From positions 1-63,893 of the forward strand of contig JAAESG010000444.1 of assembly GCA_024229615.1 (NCBI GenBank): DNA of 63,893 nt. The letters run 5' to 3'. This document shows, piece by piece, positions 5,605-63,893 of this stretch. The translations under genes and the position numbers were made by a program. Positions within the stretch are counted from its first letter, which is position 1; each line of letters begins with the position of its first letter. The stretch comes from Gammaproteobacteria bacterium. GTDB lineage: Bacteria > Pseudomonadota > Gammaproteobacteria > GCA-001735895. A model generated the notes under the pieces. That model searched no databases, had not been told where the DNA came from, and saw only the letters and a list, made by a program, of their open reading frames with translations.

Positions 5605-6909
5605 TTATTTACTTTCAAAGGGACCCCAAACAGGCTCGCGGATATCGCCTGCCTGGTCGGATAATTTATGCCTGGCACGCCCATCTAGCGAGACTGCAAA
5701 CAAAATCCCGTTATTTGCACGAGTGGAAGCATACAGCATCATCTTGCCATTTGGTGAAAACGATGGTGACTCATCCAGCGAGCTATCGGTAAGGACGGTC
5801 AAATTGCCTGTCTCGATTTCATATTGCGCTATTTTATAGCGCCCCCGGTCTCCGTGCACCATGCCAATGAATTTTCCATCTGGCGAAAGACTGGGCGCGC
5901 TATTGTAACGTCCTTCAAAGGTGATGCGTTTCGCCCTGCCCCCTTGCGCCCCGACGCGATAGATTTGCGGTGAGCCCGAACGATCGGAGGTAAAAAATAT
6001 CGACTTGCCATCGCTGCTCCAAACCGGTTCGGTATCGATGCTGCGATGGGTCGTCAGGCGTTTGAGTCGCTTGGTTGCCGTGTTCAGGCTGTAAATATCA
6101 GGACTGCCATCCTTTGACAAAACCAGAGCCAGAAACTTGCCGTCCGGCGACCAGCTGGGGGCGCTATTCAAACCCCTGAAACCCGCCACCTTGGAGCGCC
6201 TCGCCGTCGCCAGGTGCTGAATGTAAATTTCCGGGCGATCGTGCTCAAAAGAAACATAGGCCAGTGATTTACCATCCGGAGACCAGCTCGGCGACATGAT
6301 AATTTCGTCAGACTCGAGCACATTCTGGGCATTAAAACCGTCGGTGTCCGCAACCTGCAGTACATACTTGGGCAAGGTCTTGCTGGGCGCACGCACATAG
6401 GCAATACGCGTGTTGAAAGCGCCACGAGTACCGGTAATCTGTTGGTAGATGAAATCGCTGATTTCATGTGCCCGCCGGCGCAGGTTACGCTTTTTGGCTG
6501 GCATACTGCGACCCAGCAACTGTCTTTGCTTGAGTACGTCGAGCAACTGGAATTCAATTTCGTAGTTGCCTGCGGTCTTTTCCAGCACGCGTCCCACGAC
6601 CAGATAATCCTGACCGGCACCGCGCCAGCGGGCGTATCTTACCTGGTTACTGTAGTGTGGCCTGGCCGGTAATTTCGCGCGTTCCATGGATTTTAAAACG
6701 CCGCTGCGAATCAGGTCGCTGGCGACTATCCCGGCGATATCAACCGGCAGTTTGCTGGCGAGTTTTGAATTGTCGAAGGGCACTACCGCAATCGGCAAGG
6801 CGCCATCCACGCCCTGGGTAATTTCGATCGTCAAGGCCGCATGGGCTTGTTGAAAGACTCCGCAGAGCATGACGATAAACAAATGTGAGACTAGCTTTTT
6901 TAGTTGCAT
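5605..6909 (-). CDS. tolB: Tol-Pal system beta-propeller protein TolB
   Basis: 434 aa with a signal peptide, a TolB N-domain and repeated propeller motifs (SPSWSPDGKSLAY, APSWSPDGKFLA, EPVWSSDGKSIFFTSDRSG, SPSFSPNGKM). Confidence 0.95.
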   Translation of the reverse strand: MQLKKLVSHLFIVMLCGVFQQAHAALTIEITQGVDGALPIAVVPFDNSKLASKLPVDIAGIVASDLIRSGVLKSMERAKLPARPHYSNQVRYARWRGAGQDYLVVGRVLEKTAGNYEIEFQLLDVLKQRQLLGRSMPAKKRNLRRRAHEISDFIYQQITGTRGAFNTRIAYVRAPSKTLPKYVLQVADTDGFNAQNVLESDEIIMSPSWSPDGKSLAYVSFEHDRPEIYIQHLATARRSKVAGFRGLNSAPSWSPDGKFLALVLSKDGSPDIYSLNTATKRLKRLTTHRSIDTEPVWSSDGKSIFFTSDRSGSPQIYRVGAQGGRAKRITFEGRYNSAPSLSPDGKFIGMVHGDRGRYKIAQYEIETGNLTVLTDSSLDESPSFSPNGKMMLYASTRANNGILFAVSLDGRARHKLSDQAGDIREPVWGPFESK

Positions 6910-6918
6910 ATCCTGGCT

Positions 6919-7914
6919 TTACTGTACGTTTGGATTAAACAAAAAGGTTAAATCACGCTCGAACACGGCTGGATCCCCCGGTTTTGGCAGAGGTTCAGCC
7001 TTGTACACCGCATTTTCGATCGAAGCTCGATAAGTCGCGGTACTGCCTCCACAGGCCCCGAAGGTGACATCGAGAATAATTCCACCCGGTCCTTGCACGA
7101 CTTTAACTTCACAGGTCGGCATTTTCCCACTTCCTGCCGGTTTACGCCAATTACGTTCGACTTTTTGTCGAATCGCTAGAGTATAATCCGCGCGTAACTT
7201 ATTAAGTCGGCGTTGATTCTCCTCGGCCCGAAGTTTGGCCTGCAACTCTTCCTCCTGGCGTTTCTGCTCCTCTTCAGCAAGACGACGCGCTTCGTCCGCC
7301 TTGCGCTTTTCCTCGGCGATGCGGGCTTCCTCGGCTTTGCGTTTTTCCTCTGCGGCTTTCGCAACCTCGGCTTTACGCTTCTCCTCGGCCTTGCGCTTCT
7401 CCTCGGCCTTGCGCTTCTTCTCGGCTTTGCGCTTTTCCTCAGCCTGGCGTTTTTTCTCGGCCCTGGCCTTCTCTGCCTTGCGTTTTTCGTCTGCTTTTGC
7501 TTTATCGGCTGCTTTACGCTCGGCTTCTTTCTTGCGTTTCTGTTCAGCTTCTTTCTTGCGCTTTTGTTCGGCCTTTTTTTTCTTTTTTAGTTCCGCTTTT
7601 TTCTTTTCCTCGGCTTTGCGTTTCTTCTCCGCTTCCTTTTTCTTTTTATCGGCGATTTTTTTGGCCTGCTGATCCTTCTTTTTCTTTTCAGCGTCTCGCT
7701 TGCGTTTTTCTTCGGCCTGCTTTTCACGCTGCAAGGCTTCCAGTTGCTTTTGGTCGACCACTTCGGCCTTGACGGTCTTTTCAAGCTGTCCTGTCTTAAT
7801 CAGTTTCGGTTTTTCGATGAAGCTAAAGTTAATAACCATCAAGCCGATGATCAAGGCGTGGAACACGAGCGAAACCATTAACGCGCGTGGGTGTTTGAGC
7901 AACTCTGCAAACAC
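6919..7914 (-). CDS. tolA: Tol-Pal system protein TolA
   Basis: N-terminal TM anchor, a Lys/Ala/Glu-rich helical domain of about 200 aa (AEEKRKAE-type repeats) and a conserved C-terminal domain. It lies between tolR and tolB. Confidence 0.9.
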   Translation of the reverse strand: MFAELLKHPRALMVSLVFHALIIGLMVINFSFIEKPKLIKTGQLEKTVKAEVVDQKQLEALQREKQAEEKRKRDAEKKKKDQQAKKIADKKKKEAEKKRKAEEKKKAELKKKKKAEQKRKKEAEQKRKKEAERKAADKAKADEKRKAEKARAEKKRQAEEKRKAEKKRKAEEKRKAEEKRKAEVAKAAEEKRKAEEARIAEEKRKADEARRLAEEEQKRQEEELQAKLRAEENQRRLNKLRADYTLAIRQKVERNWRKPAGSGKMPTCEVKVVQGPGGIILDVTFGACGGSTATYRASIENAVYKAEPLPKPGDPAVFERDLTFLFNPNVQ

Positions 7915-8330
7915 TATGGCTTGTCCTCGGGTTCGGTCACCAGCCCGACCGAACCCACGTTAGCCTGTTGCAACAACACCAGCGTCGCGACGACATTCTG
8001 ATAAGGTCCATTAGCGTCCCCGCGCACCATCACCGGGCGTTTCGGCGCTTTGATCAACGCCGACTTAACCTGGTTTACGAGTGCTTCGGCACTGATGTCA
8101 CCATCCGGGTTGACTGCGATATTGAGATACATCAAGCCTTCCTTGTCAATCGTAATGACGATCGGTTCGGGGCTTTCCGCATCGAGTTGATTCGCCGGTG
8201 CGGTCGGTAGATCCACATCAACGCCCTGCTTTAGCAGTGGTGCGGTGACCATGAAGATAATCAACAATACCAACATGACGTCGATATAGGGTACGACATT
8301 GATTTCGGAAACTGAGCGGCGTTTCTTCAC
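7914..8330 (-). CDS. tolR: Tol-Pal system protein TolR (ExbD family)
   Basis: 138 aa with the ExbD/TolR signature INVVPYIDVMLVLLIIFMVTAPL. It follows tolQ. Confidence 0.92.
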   Translation of the reverse strand: MKKRRSVSEINVVPYIDVMLVLLIIFMVTAPLLKQGVDVDLPTAPANQLDAESPEPIVITIDKEGLMYLNIAVNPDGDISAEALVNQVKSALIKAPKRPVMVRGDANGPYQNVVATLVLLQQANVGSVGLVTEPEDKP

Positions 8331-8340
8331 TCGATGAGTC

Positions 8341-9015
8341 CTACCTGGGAGACTGGGCCTGGCGCTGCAGGATACCGGTGAACTCTTCGAGGAAATTTTC
8401 GTAACGCACGATCATCGCGTCGATTTCACTGGTGAACTTGTTGTACGCGACGACCGCCGGTATCGCTGCCAGTAAACCCATCGCAGTCGCGATCAGGGCT
8501 TCCGAAATGCCGGGTGCCACCATCGCCAGTGTCGCCTGTTGCACACCGGCCAACGCACGAAACGATTCCATGATGCCCCAGACCGTACCGAACAGTCCGA
8601 CATAGGGACTCACCGAACCGACCGTTGCCAGAAACGGCAAGTTGTTTTCCAGCATTTCTATCTCGCGCGACATCGACACCTTCATCGCGCGGTGGGCCGA
8701 GCGCACCACTTCGCTGTTATCGAGCTCGGCCTTGCGTGCACGTGCAAATTCACGAAACCCGTTTTCGAATATTGCCTCGAGTCCGAAACGCCGCTCCTGG
8801 CGCACACTCAATTGCGCAAACAAATCGCTCAGATTGATACCGGACCAGAATCGACCTTCGAATGTCTTCGCTTCCGATTGCGACTGGCGAATATAGCCAC
8901 GCTTGACATACATCAGCGACCAGGAAAACACCGAGGCCAGGAGTAGCAGCAGCATGACCAGTTGTACCGGAATGCTCGCGTTGAAAATCAGAGTAAACAG
9001 TGAATCGTCAGTCAT
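8341..9015 (-). CDS. tolQ: Tol-Pal system protein TolQ (MotA/TolQ/ExbB channel)
   Basis: 224 aa, three TM segments, conserved C-terminal GLLAAIPAVVAYN segment. Confidence 0.92.
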   Translation of the reverse strand: MTDDSLFTLIFNASIPVQLVMLLLLLASVFSWSLMYVKRGYIRQSQSEAKTFEGRFWSGINLSDLFAQLSVRQERRFGLEAIFENGFREFARARKAELDNSEVVRSAHRAMKVSMSREIEMLENNLPFLATVGSVSPYVGLFGTVWGIMESFRALAGVQQATLAMVAPGISEALIATAMGLLAAIPAVVAYNKFTSEIDAMIVRYENFLEEFTGILQRQAQSPR

Positions 9016-45171: not shown

Positions 45172-46146
45172 ATGAGCAAAGCCATTCGAATTCATCAGAC
45201 CGGCGGACCCGAAGTATTGACCTGGGAAGATATCAAGGTTGGCGACCCGGGCCCCGGGCAGGTTCGACTACGCCAATCGGCCTGTGGGCTCAACTACATC
45301 GATATCTATGGTCGTAGTGGCATGTACCCGGTAGGTGATTTACCAGCGGTCATCGGAATGGAGGCCGTAGGCGCAGTCGTTGCCGTAGGTGATGGTGTCG
45401 AAGGTTTGAACAATGGAGATCGCGTGGCCTACCCAATGACCCTGGGCGCCTATGCCGAGGAACGCCTGATTGACGCAGATAAACTGGTATCCATCCCGGG
45501 CAGTATCGGAGACGAAACCGCAGCCGCGATGATGCTTAAAGGTCTCACCGCACATTATCTGCTGTTCAGAACTTACCCAGTACAGGCTGGTGACAGCATT
45601 CTGGTTTATGCCGCGGCTGGCGGGGTTGGGCTGATTTTATGTCAATGGGCCAATCTGCTCGGCGTCGAAGTCATCGGTTGTGTCGGTTCCGAGGAAAAAG
45701 CACAACTCGCGAAAGACAACGGCTGTCATCACACTATCCTCTACCGAGATGAGGACATTCCTGGCCGCGTGCGTGAAATCACCCGAGGTAGCGGGGTTGC
45801 GGCGGCCTATGACTCAATCGGCAAAGCCACCTTTGAGGCTTCGCTGGATTGTTTGCGCCCGTTTGGCGTATTGGCGACCTATGGCAACGCGAGCGGTCCG
45901 GTCGACCCCTTCAGCCCTGCAATACTGGCAGGCAAGGGCTCGCTATATGTTACGCGCCCAACGCTGGCGACACATACCTCTACCCGGGAACTGCTCGAGC
46001 AAGGCGCACAACGTTTAATCGATGTCGTCGCTACAGGACAGGTCAAAATCAGTATCAACCAGACACACTCCCTCAGCGACTGCGCAGAAGCGCATCGCCA
46101 GCTTGAAGCGCGTGAAACAACCGGATCAACGGTTCTAAAAATATGA
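45172..46146 (+). CDS. qor: NADPH:quinone oxidoreductase (zeta-crystallin-type MDR)
   Basis: 324 aa of the GroES-like plus Rossmann MDR family, with nucleotide motif AAAGGVG. Confidence 0.88.
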   Translation: MSKAIRIHQTGGPEVLTWEDIKVGDPGPGQVRLRQSACGLNYIDIYGRSGMYPVGDLPAVIGMEAVGAVVAVGDGVEGLNNGDRVAYPMTLGAYAEERLIDADKLVSIPGSIGDETAAAMMLKGLTAHYLLFRTYPVQAGDSILVYAAAGGVGLILCQWANLLGVEVIGCVGSEEKAQLAKDNGCHHTILYRDEDIPGRVREITRGSGVAAAYDSIGKATFEASLDCLRPFGVLATYGNASGPVDPFSPAILAGKGSLYVTRPTLATHTSTRELLEQGAQRLIDVVATGQVKISINQTHSLSDCAEAHRQLEARETTGSTVLKI

Positions 46147-46527
46147 CCAAAAACTGACTTACCAGTACAGTTTTCTTTCAACTCGAGATTTCACACAAGG
46201 GGCCTGGATTTTGCTCGAAACTCGATTCTTTCGGAAACCCAAATCATCACATATTTATTATACTTTATAGCATATTAATCAATAGCTTAAGAGTTAATCT
46301 TCAGCTCACTTCAAAACAGTCAATAATACAGCGTGATGCACTGCACAATTTACTTGTGAACTACTTCACAGTCGGTCATTTTTGCAAAATCTGTTATGCC
46401 TAACTGTTATGCATATATTTCAATAAAACTGAATCTGTTACTGTTGCCTTAGCTACCTATAATTGCCGTCATGAATTAACACCGCTGCGGGATTGATACG
46501 GCCGACAGCCTTTACAGGAGCAACACC

Positions 46528-46773
46528 ATGAGCACATTAAAAGCAAAGCAGTTTCATTTGATCGAAGATCTGGATATCGCCGCGTTAACCCTCGCAATCA
46601 TCGAGCGAGTTGAAAACGTCTCTAAAGCCACCATCAGCATGATTCGGACCTGGGTACGTCGTTCAAACGATCGCCGCATGCTAGCTCAAATGAATGAGCG
46701 CATGCTATCCGACATCGGCCTGACCAGGCACGACATCGACGTGGAAGTAGCCAAACGCTTCTGGCAGAAATAA
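46528..46773 (+). CDS. DUF1127 domain-containing small protein
   Basis: 81 aa. The C-terminal RRSNDRRMLAQMNERMLSDIGLTRHDI is the DUF1127 signature. It has its own terminator. Confidence 0.8.
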   Translation: MSTLKAKQFHLIEDLDIAALTLAIIERVENVSKATISMIRTWVRRSNDRRMLAQMNERMLSDIGLTRHDIDVEVAKRFWQK

Positions 46774-46783
46774 TAACCCTTGC

Positions 46784-46815
46784 AACCGGTGTGAAATTCA
46801 CGATTCACACCGGTT
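46784..46815 (+). terminator. Stem-loop terminator after the DUF1127 gene (possibly bidirectional)
   Basis: 12-bp perfect stem AACCGGTGTGAA / TTCACACCGGTT with an 8-nt loop, followed by the T-rich GTTTCGGTTT. It lies between convergent genes. Confidence 0.7.
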
Positions 46816-46870
46816 GTTTCGGTTTAAAAGGAAAGTCAGGAAGCGCAACAGCATCTTCTCGAAACGATAT

Positions 46871-47635
46871 TTATTGTTTCAAGCGATAACCGGTTTTAAA
46901 CATCCACCACACCAATAGCAGGCATGCCAGCAAAAACAGGCATATCATCGCCAGGCTGACGCCTACGCTAACATCCGCGACCTCGAAAAAACTCCAGCGA
47001 AAACCGCTGATCAGGTACAGCACCGGATTAAACAGGGTGACTGTTTGCCAGGCAGGCGGGAGCATGCTGACCGAATAAAAACTGCCTCCCAGAAACACCA
47101 ATGGCGTAATCACCAGCATTGGAATCAGTTGTAGTTTTTCAAAATTGGTCGCCCACAGCCCGATAATGAAACCGAACAGCGCGAAAGACACGCAGGTCAA
47201 CACCAGGAATAGCAACATTATAAATGGATGAGCGATATTCAGGTCGACAAACAGGTTCGCGGTAATCAATATGATAATTCCCAGAATCATCGACTTGCTG
47301 GCTGCCGCCCCGACATAACCAACCAGAATTTCAAAAAACGATATTGGCGCCGACATGACCTCGTAAATGGTGCCGGTAAACTTGGGGAAAAATATACCGA
47401 AGGATGCGTTAGATATACTTTGTGTCAACAGAGACAGCATCACCAATCCTGGAACGATAAAAACGGCGTAAGGAACACCTTCGATCTGTTCTATCCTCGA
47501 TCCAATAGCCGCGCCGAATACGACGAAATAAAGTGAGGTTGAAATCACCGGTGAGGCAATGGTTTGCAACAGCGTATGCCAGGCGCGCAACATTTCGTAT
47601 TTGTATATGACCCGGATGGCCTGATAGTTAATCAT
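46871..47635 (-). CDS. ABC-2 type transporter permease
   Basis: 254 aa with 6 TM segments; overlaps the upstream ATPase gene by 4 nt. Confidence 0.88.
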
Positions 47636-48555
47636 TTCGTGCTCACCAAACTGACAAAAATTTCTTCCAGCGAACTCTGACTGGACTTCAGATCTTTCAA
47701 CGACAATCCAGTCTCGTGCAAAGTCTGCAGCAGGGTCGTGATTCCGGTTCGATCACCCTGGGTGTCGTAGGTATAGATCAAATGATTGCCGTCGGCAGAA
47801 ATTTCCAGATTATAGTCGGCAAGCGCCGCGGGTATTTCTTCTATGGATTGCCGGAGCTCGATCAACAGTTGCTTCTTGCCGAGTTTACGCATCAAATCCA
47901 GCTTGCCTTCAACCAGTAGCAACTGGCCCTGACTAATAATACCGACGCGATCGGCAATCTCCTCGGCTTCTTCAATATAGTGCGTTGTCAAAATGATGGT
48001 CACGCCCGATTCATTCAGGCGCCGCACCATTTTCCACATATCCTGACGTAACTCGACATCGACCCCGGCGGTGGGTTCGTCGAGAAACAGGATACGCGGT
48101 TCGTGCGATAACGCCTTGGCGATCAATACCCGTCGGCGCATGCCCCCGGATAGTTCTCTGAGTTCGCTATCGCGTTTATCCCAAAGCGACAAATCCTTAA
48201 GCAACTGCTCGAGATAGGCGGGATTGGGTGATTTGCCGAACAGTCCCCGGCTGAAGTTCACCGTATTCCAGACGGTATCGAAAGCACCCAGGGTTAGCTC
48301 CTGCGGAACCAGGCCAATCAAATCGCGGGTGACACGGTAATCGGTGATGATATCGTGACCTGCCACACTCACCGCGCCGGTACTGGCCGACACGATTCCG
48401 CAGATAATCGAGATCAGCGTGGTTTTGCCGGCACCGTTGGGTCCGAGCAGAGCTAAAATTTCACCTTCGTGGATTTCGAGGTCAACGGTACTCAGTGCCT
48501 GATGTCCACTGTCGTAAACCTTGGACAGGCCTTTAATACTTACGATGGATTGCAT
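47632..48555 (-). CDS. ABC transporter ATP-binding protein
   Basis: 307 aa; Walker [10 protein letters not shown], signature LSGGMRRR, Walker B LFLDEP. Confidence 0.93.
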
Positions 48556-52094: not shown

Positions 52095-52670
52095 ACAGCT
52101 TTGTAACAATTACCGGGGACAAGTTTGATATTAATTGAAAGTGCAGCCGATGAGACAGTTGCCGACTCGAGAGTCGACAACTATCGCTAGTGATTATTAC
52201 TGGGCAATTTCCGCATTTTTCCCGATTCGCTTCTGCCTCCACAGACCTCCAAGCCTGTGTAACTACAACCTGCGACTAGTTGCTGGCAAATTGACGCATC
52301 AGCAGATTGAAAAAGTTCCCATGTGATTCCTGTTCTTTGGCTACGCGCTGTTTTGCACTGGTTTGTTGTACCTCATATTTACGTGGGTGTTGCAGGTGAT
52401 CGCTGACAATGGATTCGACGCCCTGGGCAAACATCAAAGCGGGATTATTTGTATGAATTTGCTGGTTTCTGACTCTTCTCATTTTGGGTGCCTCGTTGTG
52501 GATTTGTTGTTTCGACGGAGTCATTCTCGCGAGCCGTCGTTAATTCCCTTGCCGAATCACGTTAAATCGCCCAAAATAATCATTAAATAATCATTAAATT
52601 TTATAAATACCTGATTTATAAGAATTTAAATGCATAAAAATATGTAAGGAGTCCGCTTCAAGGGGACCTG

Positions 52671-55600
52671 GTGTCTAAATTTGAGCTAATTTTACTGGGG
52701 CATTTTGATTGTTTGCTACCATCGGGGCAGCGAATTTCGTTATCCATGCGCAAGGCCGAAGTACTTTTGGCTTATCTGGCGCTTGTACCCGGAATCCGCC
52801 ATCCTCGTGAGCGTTTAATCAACCTGTTATGGAGCGACCGCGGCGAGGAGCAGGCTCGAAACTCTTTACGCCAATGCCTGAGCGCGATTAAAAAGTCACT
52901 GGGTGACGGTGCAGACCTGATTTTGCTGGTCGATCGAAGCGCGGTGACACTGAAGCCAGAGTTGATCGACGTCGATGTGCACGAGTTTGAACACCTCGCC
53001 GCATCGGATGATTTCGAATCCCTGACCACCGCCATCGAACTTTACCAGGGTGAATTTCTCGAGGGTATTACGTTACGCGACGTAAGCGGGCAGGAATGGC
53101 TGGATAGCCAACGCGGCCGATTCAAACACCAGTTCATCGAAGTATTGCTGAACCTGACGCAAACGCAGCTACTCAGCCACGATTTCAATACCGCGATAAA
53201 ATCTTCCGAACGCCTCGTCAAACAGGATCCATTGGGAGAGTCGGGCTGGCGCCTGTTGATGCGCAGTTACTTCGAAAATGGAGATCGCAGCCATGCCTTA
53301 CAGGCTTACAAACGTTGCCAGAATGTATTGCGTGACGAGCTCGATGTCGACCCGGAAGCCGAAACCGCGCAGTTGCGCGATCGGATCGCAAATGGCGGAA
53401 CCAGTCCCACACCGAAAGCAGTACCAAAAAAAGCTTCGGTCGATACCCCGCCGACAACCGATCACAGTATCGCTGTGTTACCGTTTGACAATCTCTCCGG
53501 TGACCCCGAGCAGGAATATTTCAGTGACGGCATCACCGACAGCATTATCCTGAACCTGTCACGATTTCGAGGACTGCAGGTTAAGTCCCGCAATTCCAGT
53601 TTTGCATTCAAGCAACAAATCAAGAACCTCGGTGAAATTTACAGAGAACTCAATGTCGACTACATCGTCGAGGGCAGTATCCGCAAATCGCCGGAGCGTA
53701 TCCGCATCATGGTGCAATTACTCGAAGCCGGGAGTGGCAACCAAATCTGGGGTAAACGTTACGATGCTGAAATCGAAAATCTGTTTGACCTCGAAGAAGA
53801 ACTGAGCCGTAGTATCGCCGCGACAGTGACAGGTCAGATCAAATCTGACTTGCAACGCATCGCGATTTCCAAGGGCGCTGCACATCAACAGGCCTATGAC
53901 TTGCTGCTACAGGGAATTTATCACAGTAATATAAGTACCCCACAAGATTGTGCAGTCGCAATCGAAAAGCTGAATCAGTGCCTGGCTTTGGATGCGAACA
54001 ACGCGCTGGCCCATGCAACACTTTACTCATGCCACGAGATGAACTGGATCGATCGCTGGGCATCGAATTTCGAAGCTTCCCGAAAACTGTGCGAAGTACA
54101 TGCAACAAAAGCACTCGAGCTGAATCCCGAGCTGGGCCAGGTTCAGGTGGTTTATGCCGAGCACCTGATTTTTAACCGTGATTACGACGAGGCCGAGGCC
54201 CACCTGAAAAAAGCGCTCGGAATTAATCCGAACGATTCCGAGGCCATCGCCGCCCTGGCGCTAAATCTGAGCTGTCAGGGGAAATTCAAAGCGGCCCTGG
54301 AACAGGCCAGGCTCGCGATACGACTCGACCCCTATCACACCTGGGCCAGGTGGATTTTGACTGAAGCCCAGTTTTTTTGCAGACAATACGAGGAGGCGCT
54401 GGACACTATTGCCGAGACTGGCAACCCACCCGGCTTTCTCCAGATATACAAGATTGCTGCCAATATCAGCCTTGACCGCATGGACGCGGCACGCGAGATA
54501 CTGAAGAACTTTCTCCACAACTGCCGTAATAGTATGTTGTCAATGCCGCGAGATATCGACGAATGGCTGGCTTACTCTCGCGACAATGCACCTTTCGCCA
54601 ACCCCGGGTTTAATCAGGAAATTATTGATTACCTGGTGCAGGCCGGGCTCGAGGATCATTTGACGGCCTCGCAACAGCAGGATGATTCAAGCCTACAACC
54701 GAGTATCCTGGTATTGCCATTCAGCAATCTGTCCGGCGATCCGGAACAGGAATATTTCAGCGACGGCATCAGCGAAAGTATTATCCTGAATTTGAGCTCG
54801 TTCAGCGGCCTCGAGGTTAAATCGCGCCATACCAGCTTTGCCTTCAAGGACAACTCCAAAAGTATTGCCGATATTGCTGCTGAGCTCGACGTGCAATTCT
54901 TCGTCGAAGGCAGCGTGCGCAAGCGCGACGAGCAAGTACGCATCACCGTGCAACTCGGGGATACCGCTAGCGGTAATCAGATATGGGGCAAGCGTTTTGA
55001 TGCAGCCCTGGACGAACTGTTTTCGCTCGAAGAAGAACTGGTGCAAACCATTGCCGGTACCATCAGTGGCCGCATCGATCATGAAATCAAAACCACATCG
55101 ATACAGAAACCGGCCAAAAATCTAAAAAGCTACGATTACCTGATGCGAGGCTGGTATCACGGCGAACGCTTTACCCCGGAAGATACCTTCGCCGCCGTTG
55201 ATCAATTCAATCGATGCCTCGAGATCGACCCTAATAATGTCGAAGCACATACGATGTTATCGGCGGTTACCAATGTCCTGCTTTACGAAAACTGGACCGA
55301 TGATCGGCAGCAAGCGAAATCCATCGCTAAAAAACACATCTTCAAAGCGCTGGAACTCGAGCCAAATCATGCGCTCGTACATGCTTTCATGGCAGAGCAC
55401 TACCTGTTTGCGAAAGATTTCGAGAAATCCATGTTTCACGCCAATAAAGCGATCGAACTCAATCCGGCTCTGCCCGACGGATATTCATACAAAGCCTACG
55501 TCCTGAGTGTCACCGGAAACACCGGGGAAGCCTTCCCGGTTGCCGAAATCAGCATGCAAATAGATCCCTATCATTACTATATGGGCTGGAACGCCGGCGA

Positions 55601-58310
55601 GGTCTACCGGAACGCGGGTCAATTCGAACGCGCCATCGATGCATTTCGTTCGATTCCGTTACTACCGGCCAGCATCCTGGCTGAAATTGCTACCTGCCAG
55701 CTCGGACTCGGCCAGCTCGACGAAGCCAAATCCACGATGGCCGAGTATCGTCGGATTGCGCGGCAACAGATGCCCAATTTCCCGACCTCCGTCGAAGCCT
55801 GGCGCTCACTATGGGATGAAAACGAGCCCTTCGAATCAAGCCAGGACTTCGATGCCTTCTTTGATCTATTGCTGCAGGCAGGATTGTGCAACGACATTGA
55901 CTCACAGGATGACATACCCTCAATCGCGGTATTACCGTTTGAAAACATGAGCGGCGATCCGCAACAGGAATATTTCAGCGACGGCATTACCGCAAGCATT
56001 ATTCTGAGCCTCGGGCTGTTTCACGGCATCGGCGTGAAATCCCAAAAATCCAGCTTCGCCTTCAAGCAGAGTTCCCTGTCTTCGGTGCAAATCGCCGACG
56101 AGTTGAAAGCCGACTATCTGGTCGAGGGCAGCATTCGTAAATCATCTAGCAGGGTTCGTGTTTCGGTGCAACTCATCGAATCGGCTAGTGGGAATCAAAT
56201 CTGGGGTAAGCAGTACGACGCCGAACTGGAGGACATCCTCGAACTGGAGCAGGAACTCAGTCAATCCATCGCCGCGACGATTAGTGGTCGCCTTGGTCAC
56301 AAGATTCAACAGTCAGCGGTACGAAAACCCGCAAAAGACATGAAGAGTTATGACTACCTGATGCGTGGCCTTTACCATTTTGGCCTGTTCACCTGCGAGG
56401 ACATGGTGATCGCCAGGGAGCAGATCCACAAATGCATCGACATCGATCCCGATAACGCAATCGCCCACACCAACCTCGCAGTCGCTTACGACGTAGAACT
56501 TCTCGAAAACTGGGCTTCGGACCGTAATCTGGCTGAAAATCTGGCAGGCAGACACTTCGAGATTGCACTGCAGCTGGAACCCGACGACGCCCTGACCCAC
56601 GCTTACCTGACGGAGCATCTGATCTTTCTGGGTGACTTTGAAAAAGCCGAGTTTCATGCCGACAGGGCAATTGAATTGAATCCCACCGCATCGGAAGGAT
56701 ACGTGGCCAAAGCCGATCTGCTCAGTTATAGCAGACGAGCAGACGAGGCAATCCACTATGCAGACCAGTGTCTGCAACTCGATCCGCATAGCGTTGGCTC
56801 GGGCTGGGTCGCGGGGGACGTGTATCGAAATTCAGGCCAGTACCGAAAAGCGATAAAAACCTTCCGTTCGATTTCGCATCCACCGCCGAGTATACAAGGA
56901 CTGATTGCAGTCTCGTTTGTACAACTCGAATTGCTCGAGGAAGCGCGAACTGAAATGAAGCTGTATCAAAAACTGGCAAAACAGCAAATGCCCAAATACC
57001 CGAGCAATACCGAGGAATGGCGTCAACTTTGGGGGCAAAGCGCTCATTATTTATTCCGCGATGACTTCAATGCCTTTTTCACTCAGCTGTTACAAGCGGG
57101 ACTATGCGATGATCTTGAGGATGCGGATAGTGATCTGCCTTCGATTGCGGTACTGCCGTTTGAAAACATGAGTGGCGACCCGGAGCAGGCGCATTTCAGC
57201 GACGGCATTACCACCGACATCATTGCAACCTTGTCCAGGTTCAATCACATACGCACGGTCTCGCGTTACTCGATCTTGCAATATAAAGACCAGCACGTAT
57301 CGATCCCCGAGATCGCACAACAACAAAATGTACGCTATATCCTCGAAGGCAGCGTGCGCAAGAGCGGCGACAGCATTCGGGTCAGTGCCGAATTAATCGA
57401 CTCAAAGGATCAAAAAATATGCTGGAGCGAGCGTTTCGATCGCGATCTCAATGATCTTTTCAAGGTTCAGGACGAGATTACCATGAGCATCGCGCTGGCG
57501 ATGAAAGTGCATCTCGATGACGGTGACATGGCCTTGCATCGATCGATCGGCACTACCAACGTCAGGGCCTGGGAACTGGTGATGGCGGCGGTCGATCTGC
57601 AGGACACTTATATCAGGGAGAGTATTATCGAATCGCGCGGCATGGCGAGACAGGCTATCGAACTCGATTCCGGCTACGCCTACGCGTGGGTTTGTCTCGC
57701 CTGGACTTACTGGCAAGAAATATATTGCGGCTGGAGCGATTCGATCGAAGCGGGGATGAATGAAGCGACCCAGGCCAATCAGCAGGCGCACGAGATCAAC
57801 CCGGAATACTCTGAAGCCTGGAGCCAGGCTGCCCTAATCCACATGATGAATCACGATGCGAATAAAACGATTGCGGCCTGCAGCAAGGCGATCGAGCTCG
57901 AACCCGGCAATGCCGAAGTACAGGCATTAATGGCCTTTTGTCTGATCTTTACCGGCGACTATGAGCAGGCGCGAATGTATAATCGAGGTATGTTGAAGCT
58001 GTGCCCGGTGTTACCCAACTGGTATTACCTGATTGACGGCCAGATCGAGCAACTTGCCGGAGATCTAGTTTCAGCCATCGATACTTTCAAACAGGGTGTT
58101 GCGATCGAACCGGATTCTCCACTGTGCCGGTTTTATCTGATTCACGCACTGATGCAACAGGGCGACGAAGTCGCAGCGAAAACGCTGGCGCAGGAAATCA
58201 GGGTGCTCGACAAGAATGTGACCGGCAAAGGACTGGTGCGGGCATTTTCGATGGATGAGGGTTTGCGCAAACAATTCCAGGTCCATTTGGAAAAGTTTGA
58301 CCTGTACTAG
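52671..58310 (+). CDS. Giant SARP/BTAD-type transcriptional regulator with four tandem TolB-N-like plus TPR sensor modules
   Basis: 1879 aa with a GTG start (GGGGA 5 nt upstream). The N-terminus is a winged helix plus BTAD domain (LYQGEFLEG...DPLGESGWRLLMRSYFENGDRSHALQAYKRC). Four modules begin at aa 266, 678, 1084 and 1491. Each opens with SI(A/L)VLPF.N.SGDP(E/Q)Q.(Y/H)FSDGI, followed by EGS(I/V)RK...(I/V)R(I/V) and TPR repeats. No obvious TM segment is present. Confidence 0.85.
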   Translation: MSKFELILLGHFDCLLPSGQRISLSMRKAEVLLAYLALVPGIRHPRERLINLLWSDRGEEQARNSLRQCLSAIKKSLGDGADLILLVDRSAVTLKPELIDVDVHEFEHLAASDDFESLTTAIELYQGEFLEGITLRDVSGQEWLDSQRGRFKHQFIEVLLNLTQTQLLSHDFNTAIKSSERLVKQDPLGESGWRLLMRSYFENGDRSHALQAYKRCQNVLRDELDVDPEAETAQLRDRIANGGTSPTPKAVPKKASVDTPPTTDHSIAVLPFDNLSGDPEQEYFSDGITDSIILNLSRFRGLQVKSRNSSFAFKQQIKNLGEIYRELNVDYIVEGSIRKSPERIRIMVQLLEAGSGNQIWGKRYDAEIENLFDLEEELSRSIAATVTGQIKSDLQRIAISKGAAHQQAYDLLLQGIYHSNISTPQDCAVAIEKLNQCLALDANNALAHATLYSCHEMNWIDRWASNFEASRKLCEVHATKALELNPELGQVQVVYAEHLIFNRDYDEAEAHLKKALGINPNDSEAIAALALNLSCQGKFKAALEQARLAIRLDPYHTWARWILTEAQFFCRQYEEALDTIAETGNPPGFLQIYKIAANISLDRMDAAREILKNFLHNCRNSMLSMPRDIDEWLAYSRDNAPFANPGFNQEIIDYLVQAGLEDHLTASQQQDDSSLQPSILVLPFSNLSGDPEQEYFSDGISESIILNLSSFSGLEVKSRHTSFAFKDNSKSIADIAAELDVQFFVEGSVRKRDEQVRITVQLGDTASGNQIWGKRFDAALDELFSLEEELVQTIAGTISGRIDHEIKTTSIQKPAKNLKSYDYLMRGWYHGERFTPEDTFAAVDQFNRCLEIDPNNVEAHTMLSAVTNVLLYENWTDDRQQAKSIAKKHIFKALELEPNHALVHAFMAEHYLFAKDFEKSMFHANKAIELNPALPDGYSYKAYVLSVTGNTGEAFPVAEISMQIDPYHYYMGWNAGEVYRNAGQFERAIDAFRSIPLLPASILAEIATCQLGLGQLDEAKSTMAEYRRIARQQMPNFPTSVEAWRSLWDENEPFESSQDFDAFFDLLLQAGLCNDIDSQDDIPSIAVLPFENMSGDPQQEYFSDGITASIILSLGLFHGIGVKSQKSSFAFKQSSLSSVQIADELKADYLVEGSIRKSSSRVRVSVQLIESASGNQIWGKQYDAELEDILELEQELSQSIAATISGRLGHKIQQSAVRKPAKDMKSYDYLMRGLYHFGLFTCEDMVIAREQIHKCIDIDPDNAIAHTNLAVAYDVELLENWASDRNLAENLAGRHFEIALQLEPDDALTHAYLTEHLIFLGDFEKAEFHADRAIELNPTASEGYVAKADLLSYSRRADEAIHYADQCLQLDPHSVGSGWVAGDVYRNSGQYRKAIKTFRSISHPPPSIQGLIAVSFVQLELLEEARTEMKLYQKLAKQQMPKYPSNTEEWRQLWGQSAHYLFRDDFNAFFTQLLQAGLCDDLEDADSDLPSIAVLPFENMSGDPEQAHFSDGITTDIIATLSRFNHIRTVSRYSILQYKDQHVSIPEIAQQQNVRYILEGSVRKSGDSIRVSAELIDSKDQKICWSERFDRDLNDLFKVQDEITMSIALAMKVHLDDGDMALHRSIGTTNVRAWELVMAAVDLQDTYIRESIIESRGMARQAIELDSGYAYAWVCLAWTYWQEIYCGWSDSIEAGMNEATQANQQAHEINPEYSEAWSQAALIHMMNHDANKTIAACSKAIELEPGNAEVQALMAFCLIFTGDYEQARMYNRGMLKLCPVLPNWYYLIDGQIEQLAGDLVSAIDTFKQGVAIEPDSPLCRFYLIHALMQQGDEVAAKTLAQEIRVLDKNVTGKGLVRAFSMDEGLRKQFQVHLEKFDLY
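53466..58307 (+). repeat. Four in-frame tandem coding modules of about 1.2 kb inside the giant regulator gene
   Basis: Module starts lie at nt 53466, 54702, 55920 and 57141, with periods of 1236, 1218 and 1221 nt. Modules 2 and 3 align over their whole length at protein level (KSYDYLMRG, AIELNP, QAGLC.D...PSIAVLPFENMSGDP). The nucleotide sequences have clearly diverged. Confidence 0.85.
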
Positions 58311-63364: not shown

Positions 63365-63893
63365 TTATTCGAATTTGTAACCCGCACCGTAAACCGAATG
63401 AATCGGATCTTCGTCGAGTCCCAGCTCAAACAGTCTTTTACGTAGCTTCTTGATGTGACTGTCAATGGTGCGATCGGTCACTATTCGATTATCCGCATAG
63501 ATCAGAGACATCAAATGATCCCTGGAATATATTCTTCCCGGACTATCGTGAAGCGCTTTAAACAGGCTGAATTCAACCTTGGTCAGATCGATATGCTTTC
63601 CCTTGAATCCGACTCGTAAAGCATCTACATCGAGCTTTAGCCCGGAATTTCCCAGCCCTGTCTTTTCAACGCGCCGCAAAATATTTTTGATTCTTGCAAT
63701 CACTTCGCGTGGACTAAAGGGTTTGCAGACATAGTCGTCCGCACCCAGTTCCAGACCAATCAGGCGATCAATCTCATCGACTTTGGCCGTGAGCATCATA
63801 ATCGGCAAGTTTGAGAACTGACGCACCTCCCTGCAGATTGTCAGGCCGTCTTTGCCAGGTAGCATCAGGTCGAGAATGAGGAAGGCCGGCTCA
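63365..63893 (-). CDS. OmpR/PhoB-family response regulator (BaeR/CpxR-like); the 5' end lies outside the window
   Basis: The receiver C-terminal part is FLILDLMLPGKDG...KPFSPREV. The winged-helix domain is IVTDRTIDSHIKKLRKRL...VYGAGYKFE, closest in my memory to BaeR. Confidence 0.9.
   Translation of the reverse strand, partial: EPAFLILDLMLPGKDGLTICREVRQFSNLPIMMLTAKVDEIDRLIGLELGADDYVCKPFSPREVIARIKNILRRVEKTGLGNSGLKLDVDALRVGFKGKHIDLTKVEFSLFKALHDSPGRIYSRDHLMSLIYADNRIVTDRTIDSHIKKLRKRLFELGLDEDPIHSVYGAGYKFE

Follow-up and report, generated by a model that had tools for sequence, protein, structure and literature searches.

The stretch of DNA analysed here (hereafter the window; 63,893 nucleotides (nt) of contig JAAESG010000444.1, assembly GCA_024229615.1, from an uncultured gammaproteobacterium) encodes, at 52671..58310 on the + strand, a regulator of 1879 amino acids (aa) in which a head of the SARP type is followed by four tandem modules (M1 to M4), each a TolB-N-like α/β domain joined to TPR-like helices. 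The regulator belongs to a subfamily of uncultured, marine-type Gammaproteobacteria that is populated in databases and unstudied, with the architecture SARP head - (TolB_N-TPR)n - M4 cap. Its main interest lies in three features: the number of modules runs from zero to seven at one locus, a small divergent gene and SARP-box-like repeats are conserved next to the regulator, and one module differs as a whole cassette between strains. On balance, we infer that the regulator is probably a SARP activator with the repeats between regulator and small gene as its site of action, tuned by an accessory, recombining sensor array.

The variation in module number is seen at a single syntenic locus, whose common neighbourhood reads SDR - NUDIX - LysE ... 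small gene <> regulator >< M81/MlrC peptidase - (CCP) - EamA (<>, divergent; ><, convergent), with M81 orthologues that are 69-75% identical between loci. Seven modules are present at L001 (CP070646.1, regulator of 3118 aa) and L003, five at L002 and L012, four in the window, L011 and L021, three at L014 and L019, and two at L015 and L016. At L017 and L018, which come from two independent samples, there are none, and the regulator is a head-only SARP of 245 aa; it terminates within the linker, and 18 bp separate it from the M81 gene. The extra units of the seven-module proteins are M1-type paralogues inserted after the head, and M1 of the window is orthologous to module 4 of these proteins (76-77% identity). 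In a tree of the heads, which are 72-85% identical, the zero-, two-, four-, five- and seven-module forms are interleaved, with the zero-module form nested among five- and seven-module forms, and copy number has thus changed repeatedly. The modules are dispensable for the persistence of the unit made up of head, repeats and small gene. Indeed, because a natural zero-module orthologue occupies the same locus, the array is unnecessary for the core job proposed for this unit. At one more syntenic locus, L020, on a contig of 328 kb, the regulator is in pieces: an ORF (open reading frame) of 805 aa (6394-8811) is followed downstream by ORFs of 82, 156 and 167 aa. The gene is a pseudogene there, or else a long-read assembly has introduced indel errors.

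The small gene (52276..52482, − strand; 68 aa, MRRVRNQQIHTNNPALMFAQGVES...NFFNLLMRQFASN) is divergent from the regulator and its family is unnamed. A gene of 67-71 aa adjoins the regulator at every locus examined, including the six-module L013, which is not syntenic, and the zero-module L017. Seven of the small proteins align with a mean column identity of 63% and conserved termini and, judged by this alignment, the small gene evolves as a protein. The family comprises at least 316 clusters, every one of them unnamed or called 'hypothetical protein'. Searches of Pfam, PADLOC and the PDB gave no match for the small protein, and its single match in NCBIfam is non-significant (E 0.079, 12.6 bits vs a cutoff of 158.8). 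One alternative reading makes this protein the ligand of the array: the modules would bind the 68-aa product, possibly one copy per module, in a titration feedback with a threshold that depends on how many modules there are. Short peptide termini are common ligands of TPR domains, and the strongly conserved ends of the small protein, its linkage to the regulator at every locus including the non-syntenic one, and the echo of the AfsR-afsS pairing would all suit such a feedback. We nevertheless consider it improbable, since the small gene stays intact and conserved where the regulator has no modules, and so resembles an output more than a ligand. The zero-module orthologue speaks against titration as an obligatory function, and likewise against the scaffold discussed below.

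Between the small gene and the regulator lies a control region of ~190 bp. Its mean column identity is 75-85% between loci, and the proteins of these loci are only 54-85% identical. The region contains four direct repeats, C[GA]TTAA[AT][AT], which begin at 52538, 52560, 52581 and 52592 (span 52538..52599, + strand), are spaced by 22, 21 and 11 bp, and form a candidate SARP box. The phased repeats are kept in 7-8 loci compared, the head-only locus included, and no other phased cluster occurs in the 64-kb window (4 phased pairs vs a mean of 0.01 after shuffling). According to PMC10936776, SARPs recognise direct repeats at intervals of 11 or 22 bp and contact the first 8 bp within each 11-bp unit; the site overlaps with the −35 element, and its 3′ repeat lies ~8 bp from the −10. 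As far as sequence can tell, the geometry of the repeats in the window matches this rule. For the regulator, TATAAG (52617..52622, + strand) is a putative −10-like hexamer, and TTAAAT of repeat 4 (52594-52599) occupies the −35 position for it with a 17-bp spacer. For the small gene, the putative −10-like hexamer is GAGAAT (52523..52528, − strand), 9 bp from repeat 1, which recurs as GA(G/C)AAT in 7/7 loci; columns C39, A40, T41, T42, T44, C45 and G46 of the alignment are invariant there. Neither a consensus σ70 promoter nor a terminator was found between 52200 and 52720, and the missing σ70 consensus is as expected for activator-dependent promoters. The intergenic region has no match in Rfam.

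A preliminary description of this DNA, made from the letters alone, had named the convergent M81/amidohydrolase/DMT unit as an example of a target promoter. That proposal found no support: the phased repeats are present only upstream of the regulator and nowhere else in the window, and the M81/amidohydrolase/EamA unit carries no copies of them. L013 has lost the linkage to M81 but retains the small gene, which makes M81 look like part of a conserved neighbourhood and not like a demonstrated target.

Comparison with sister strains shows that the array also differs between close relatives. Four independent NCBI assemblies (L021-L024), reached via the small protein, which is identical in them, have flanks mostly 97-100% identical to the window, with an average of ~94% for L023 and L024. 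Against L021, the regulator gene is 97-100% identical outside a divergent block one module long (53491..54740, + strand; aa ~275-690), which runs from the SIAVLPF..DGI motif of M1 to that of M2. Inside the block, identity falls to 70-80% in the α/β domain and to ~55% nt (47% aa) in the TPR part, and the block edges lie within the conserved SIAVLPFxNLSGDPEQEYFSDGI motifs of the two modules. The cassette of the window (M1a) is closest to module 3 of 3 in P0032, 2 of 5 in P0004 and 1 of 4 in P0013 (80-86%), and that of the sister strains (M1b) to module 3 of 4 in P0025, 2 of 5 in P0019 and 1 of 2 in P0074 (~67%). Several tandem M1-type units occur in five- to seven-module relatives. The difference would fit a cassette exchange, or, if these relatives include both cassette types, two alternative in-register deletions from a longer ancestor; possibly, it is an assembly chimera through the common motif. 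A bolder interpretation is a plug-and-play transcription factor, whose inputs would be reshuffled at the strain level via the 23-residue motif with the head, the DNA site and the small target gene fixed. We view this as a speculative extension, more doubtful than probable.

A protein search covering 5.8 billion proteins gave 506 matches at E<=1e-10, of which the best 120 were analysed; their lengths are quantised at ~1065, 1480, 1885, 2290, 2710 and 3090 aa. By a hidden Markov model (HMM) of the α/β domain, the closest 120 clusters hold two modules (29 clusters), three (43), four (26), five (15), six (6) or seven (2). The multi-module homologues come nearly all from uncultured Gammaproteobacteria and are named merely 'tetratricopeptide repeat protein', 'BTAD domain-containing putative transcriptional regulator' or 'TolB-like protein/SARP activator'. 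The same arrays occur in fusion with other output domains as well (class III cyclase, Ser/Thr kinase, OmpR-type winged helix-turn-helix). An exhaustive profile search of 1.84 billion representatives found 52,447 proteins of the module family at E<=1e-30. Of 141 representatives from outside the best-match set, 100 carry two units and 16 a single one; the latter include SARP-headed proteins of 672-695 aa. A database search with the head alone returned only short proteins and fragments, which are unfit for a length distribution, and it exposed the head-only orthologue.

Typing each module of the homologues against M1-M4 of the window reveals an array grammar. The last module is of the M4 type in nearly all complete homologues, and M1-, M2- and M3-type modules precede it in variable number, as in M1-M4, M1-M2-M4, M1-M3-M4, M1-M1-M2-M3-M4 and M1-M1-M1-M1-M2-M3-M4. 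The window has all that marks the subfamily, namely a SARP head, n modules, an M4-type end, a divergent gene of 67-71 aa and four phased copies of C[GA]TTAA[AT][AT]. Because clusters with two to seven modules abound, 26 of them with four, the four-module form is not singular; it is one state in a copy-number series and ordinary within the subfamily. Two of the homologues, P0137 (308 aa) and P0089 (1138 aa), are both reported on a longest contig of 47,759 bp and may represent one regulator that a frameshift or gene calling has divided into a head part and a module part.

The preliminary description had stated that such heads typically carry a single unit, which does not hold given the two to seven modules of the closest 120 clusters and the two units in 100 of the 141 further representatives. 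Its account of single-module proteins with an AGL-type C terminus was sound: P0392 (672 aa), P0421 (695 aa) and P0331 (599 aa), together with distant two-module relatives, end in ...(K/Q/R)AGL... The novelty it claimed for the four-module form survives only in part, since multi-module forms are common in databases. A full-text literature search found nothing on SARP/TolB_N/TPR regulators with one or several modules, the apparent matches being TolB β-propellers or Streptomyces SARPs.

The regulator gene is a single open frame with a GTG start and a TAA stop. A Shine-Dalgarno-like AAGGGGA stands 5 nt 5′ of the GTG, and the N terminus, MSKFELILLG, agrees with the pattern MSK(F/L)ELILLG of the homologues. 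The SARP head (aa 1-245; 52671..53405, + strand), delimited with Pfam, phmmer and an AlphaFold2 model, comprises an OmpR-type winged helix (~aa 20-84) and, contiguous with it, a BTAD (aa 115-239). The BTAD is recognised by Pfam (PF03704, 86.7 bits vs a cutoff of 22.1); the winged helix matches Trans_reg_C at aa 20-84 with 20.7 bits, below the cutoff of 26.2. In a phmmer search of the PDB, head residues 19-242 align to AfsR (1e-7) and EmbR (5e-6). An AlphaFold2 model of the head and module 1, built from 63 aligned homologues, has a mean pLDDT of 84.9, and Foldseek places the modelled head on the AfsR SARP domain (8k60, 8hvr) with TM-scores of 0.79-0.80 and root-mean-square deviations (rmsd) of 2.7-3.0 Å (for 8k60, TM 0.80 and 2.7 Å over ~250 residues), with EmbR matched as well. 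Because of the phmmer alignment to AfsR and EmbR and the superposition of the model on the entire AfsR SARP domain, we assign the predicted OmpR-type winged helix followed by BTAD to the SARP type in spite of the sub-threshold Pfam score. The regulator has the testable features that define the SARP family, the head fold and the BTAD. Furthermore, the recognition-helix stretch W54..R57..Q61-A62-R63..S65-L66-R67 is invariant in the 63 homologues, and the proportions of nonsynonymous and synonymous differences (pN/pS) from a four-module orthologue are 0.15/0.71 in the head. A low-complexity linker follows (aa 246-263; 53406..53459, + strand), which is predicted to be disordered (pLDDT <50) and is just 18% identical to that of the orthologue; the natural head-only variant stops there.

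The four modules follow one another without a break on the + strand: M1 at aa 262-673 (53454..54689), M2 at aa 674-1079 (54690..55907), M3 at aa 1080-1486 (55908..57128) and M4, a divergent terminal cap, at aa 1487-1879 (57129..58307), M2 and M3 being defined by motif, BLASTP and HMM. The HMM of the α/β domain detects four domains in the regulator ORF (E 8e-72 to 9e-69) and no copies outside it when the whole window is translated in six frames. M2 and M3 are 51% identical in aa sequence (BLASTP E 2e-154), and M1 is 38-39% identical to both. M4 is 27-28% identical to the other modules in a MAFFT alignment and 31% over a 289-residue BLASTP high-scoring segment pair, with E 1e-42 for M1-M4. Pairwise nt identity between modules is 42-57%, third codon positions are saturated (32-38% identical), and the longest exact stretch common to module copies is 25 nt. 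The copies are thus old, and too diverged to have arisen by collapse or expansion of a repeat during assembly. Against the four-module orthologue, pN/pS is 0.11/0.64 for M1, 0.28/0.72 for M2, 0.28/0.76 for M3 and 0.19/0.70 for M4. Since pN is far below pS in every segment, all four modules are maintained by purifying selection.

On the anatomy of the protein, the preliminary description proved accurate. The ORF, Pfam and HMM results bear out its single uninterrupted frame with a SARP/BTAD head and four complete TolB-N-like/TPR units, and a scan for the motif S-I-(A/L)-V-L-P-F (SIAVLPF or SILVLPF) returns the unit starts that it gave, aa 266, 678, 1084 and 1491. It had the first three modules ending in QAGL(E/C).D-like segments and the fourth differently, and the translation indeed ends in ...LVQAGLEDH for M1, ...LLQAGLCND for M2, ...LLQAGLCDD for M3 and ...HLEKFDLY, without the AGL tail, for M4. 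Its view of the copies as diverged, old and maintained agrees with the nt identities, the saturated third positions and the low pN. Finally, it saw no transmembrane (TM) segment and placed the protein in the cytoplasm. Our checks point the same way: no TM segment was found in the regulator, whose best 19-residue Kyte-Doolittle mean (1.49) falls inside globular domains, and a search for a signal peptide found none, so that the regulator is predicted to be cytoplasmic.

These data bear on whether the four-module ORF is real. Assembly might have produced it artefactually, or it could be a repeat gene in decay or selfish expansion, with no function maintained: an identical-sequence look-up of the exact window protein gave no other database record, the L020 relative is fragmented, and M1 differs from the four sister assemblies in a way that a chimeric join through the common motif could mimic. 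We judge this very improbable, given that a separate assembly, L021 (GCA_024449935.1), has a four-module regulator of the same length, 5640 nt, that the modules share no more than 25 identical nt, that every one of them is under purifying selection, and that dozens of intact four-module homologues exist.

The AlphaFold2 model shows M1 as a five-stranded α/β domain (aa 265-387), a flexible hinge (aa 389-403) and about fourteen paired TPR-like helices (aa 406-672) that lead into the ...QAGLED tail. A separate model of the α/β domain has a pLDDT of 90.4, and in Foldseek it resembles the TolB N-domain (TMq 0.70-0.74, rmsd 3.3-4.3 Å) and PelC (TMq 0.55-0.64), with GNA1162, LpoB, FlgT and CsgG also matched. 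A profile search of the PDB with the same domain gave weak matches to FlgO (E 0.004) and PelC (E 0.012), and Pfam TolB_N (PF04052) scores 53.9 bits summed over the regulator (cutoff 22.4), alongside FlgO- and CadC_C1-type matches. At the level of predicted models, the TolB-N-like α/β fold is structurally confirmed. The helical part matches TPR_19 (152 bits), TPR_17, TPR_14, TPR_2 and TPR_1, each above its Pfam cutoff, and PDB searches with the whole module are dominated by generic TPR proteins.

An alternative, raised as one possibility in the preliminary description, is that the array is a structural scaffold or oligomerisation platform. Its TPR superhelices and TolB-N-like domains would self-associate or recruit partner proteins and so gather heads on the four repeats, the tandem copies forming a covalent pseudo-oligomer of single-module relatives that homo-oligomerise. 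Several of the closest fold relatives are deposited as rings or ring complexes, such as the PelC dodecamer and the LPHT ring, FlgO entries contain 58-174 chains each, and CsgG is a nonamer. Several head protomers would be needed on four DNA repeats, and TPRs are classical protein-protein modules. We nevertheless hold a scaffold to be rather unlikely. The zero-module orthologue retains the four repeats and the small gene, so modules are unneeded to populate the repeats, and copy number ranges over 0-7 without a change in the DNA site. Moreover, cyclases and kinases carry these modules too, as would be expected of input domains.

Returning to the activator that we favour, a coherent mechanism can be outlined. 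Its conserved core would consist of the head, the ~190-bp control region with four helically phased 8-bp repeats, and the divergent 68-aa gene. Head protomers would bind the repeats side by side, like AfsR on its 22-bp box, and the bound heads could then activate the promoter of the regulator itself, that of the small gene, or both. The modules may be regulatory input units that bind a ligand or partner and gate the head, by analogy with AfsR, whose NOD/TPR region is inhibitory (PMC10936776), and with the fusions of the same modules to cyclases and kinases. The array would change by in-register recombination at the SIAVLPFxNLSGDPEQEYFSDGI motif, to yield 0-7 copies and whole-cassette exchange between near-identical strains.

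Several points weigh against this account. The winged-helix match lies below the Pfam cutoff, so that the case for the DNA-binding part is made by the structure match and by conservation. All the repeats point the same way between divergent genes, so that the canonical SARP polarity is open to no more than one of the two promoters, and the −10-like hexamers, picked out by eye, are weak. There are four DNA repeats however many modules the regulator has. The M1 allele of the window is found on this contig alone. Finally, the top-ranked solved fold relatives (TolB, PelC, LpoB, FlgT and CsgG) are mostly periplasmic or outer-membrane proteins, and we know of no cytoplasmic functional precedent.

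SARPs have been studied almost solely as activators of actinomycete antibiotic clusters, with C-terminal extensions that are absent or of the TPR, NOD-TPR, FHA or LAL type. The subfamily described here is a populous gammaproteobacterial SARP branch with a different extension, a repeated sensor-like unit whose fold is otherwise known from periplasmic proteins. Its 0-7 series is a natural deletion series for the effects of C-terminal domains on a SARP head, and the system supplies a defined candidate site on the DNA together with a putative small-protein output, with an echo of AfsR-afsS. Should different modules recognise different signals or partners, the array would give bacteria a novel means of varying the inputs to one promoter. 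Furthermore, the module family, with more than 50,000 representative clusters (E<=1e-30), has no assigned ligand or function, and any functional handle would annotate much sequence.

Other features of the window and of the loci are as follows. A 4-nt overlap (58307-58310) joins the stop-codon ends of the regulator gene and of the convergent gene for the 504-aa M81/MlrC peptidase, an arrangement also present at L001, L003, L011, L012 and L015; the gap is 18 bp at L017 and 188 bp at L014. The overlap leaves no room for a terminator, and transcriptional interference is thus possible. Variable co-directional genes lie downstream of the small ORF at L014, L015-L017, L019 and L020, with an aldehyde dehydrogenase directly after it; next come, at most of these loci, a histidine kinase with a phosphonate-binding domain, a GerE-type response regulator and DsrE, and at some a peroxiredoxin and an MBL-fold protein. 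At L015 and L016 the aldehyde dehydrogenase stands alone, and the corresponding interval of the window, 52095-52275 between LysE and the small ORF, contains none of the aldehyde dehydrogenase/kinase/DsrE set. The nearby CDO, TauD, EamA and LysE genes hint at organosulfur or amino-acid metabolism. PADLOC models of defence proteins match neither the regulator, nor the 68-aa protein, nor the M81 neighbour. At the window edge lies an OmpR-type response regulator gene (63365-63865, − strand), whose receiver domain is represented in the listed ORF by its C-terminal part alone; the counterpart of this gene at L015 is a pair of a response regulator and a PhoQ-like kinase. G+C content is lower at 1-2000 (0.449) and 46001-48000 (0.459) than elsewhere in the window (~0.52).

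Among known systems, the regulator is most readily compared with AfsR of Streptomyces coelicolor and EmbR of M. tuberculosis, which have the same head fold, a winged helix (ODB) plus BTAD (TM 0.80 to 8k60). AfsR-type proteins likewise have a C-terminal extension with TPRs; the spacing of their direct repeats, 11 or 22 bp, and the overlap with a −35 position recur in the candidate sites of the window; and AfsR is paired with the small-protein gene afsS as the regulator of the window is with the 68-aa gene. The differences are substantial. The regulator has neither an NB-ARC/NOD ATPase nor an FHA domain, its extension being tandem TolB-N-like/TPR units in 0-7 copies, and its host is an uncultured gammaproteobacterium without biosynthetic-cluster context, whereas those of AfsR and EmbR are actinomycetes; moreover, the 68-aa gene is unrelated to named families. 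An assignment to the AfsR-type large SARPs (SARP-NOD-TPR) was rejected, as Pfam finds no NB-ARC or AAA domain and NF053617 reaches 42.6 vs 1430 bits in the head only. Closer in their modules are the single-module proteins in which a winged helix-turn-helix, BTAD or cyclase part is joined to TolB-N-like and TPR regions. They share the SIAVLPFxNxSGDPExxYF(S/A)DG motif and the ...AGL.. tail, and differ from the window protein, which has four units in series and an M4-type cap and scores 37 vs 400 bits with the cyclase model TIGR04510. JGI names this single-module group 'TolB-like protein/SARP family activator', and we found no described function for its members.

CadC and HilA-EilA also join a winged-helix activator to an α/β plus helical-repeat region, each as a single unit. 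The modules give partial NCBIfam matches to HilA (positions 165-405) and CadC (positions 218-453), and Pfam CadC_C1 scores 26.3 bits. Identity with either was rejected on scores of 65.8 vs 400 bits (PRK10153) and 103 vs 589 bits (PRK12370) and the absence of a TM segment. CadC appears neither among the PDB profile matches listed (E<=10) nor among the best 50 Foldseek matches for the α/β domain, and its sensor is periplasmic behind a TM helix, whereas the regulator has no such helix. TolB itself was likewise rejected (TIGR02800, 83.6 vs 343 bits), the match being limited to the N-domain, and the regulator having no signal peptide or TM segment. The α/β fold of each module is that of the group formed by the TolB N-domain, PelC, LpoB, FlgO-FlgT and CsgG. 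In that group it is mostly periplasmic or bound to the outer membrane, whereas here it is predicted to be cytoplasmic, has no TolB β-propeller, and occurs four times in one transcription factor.

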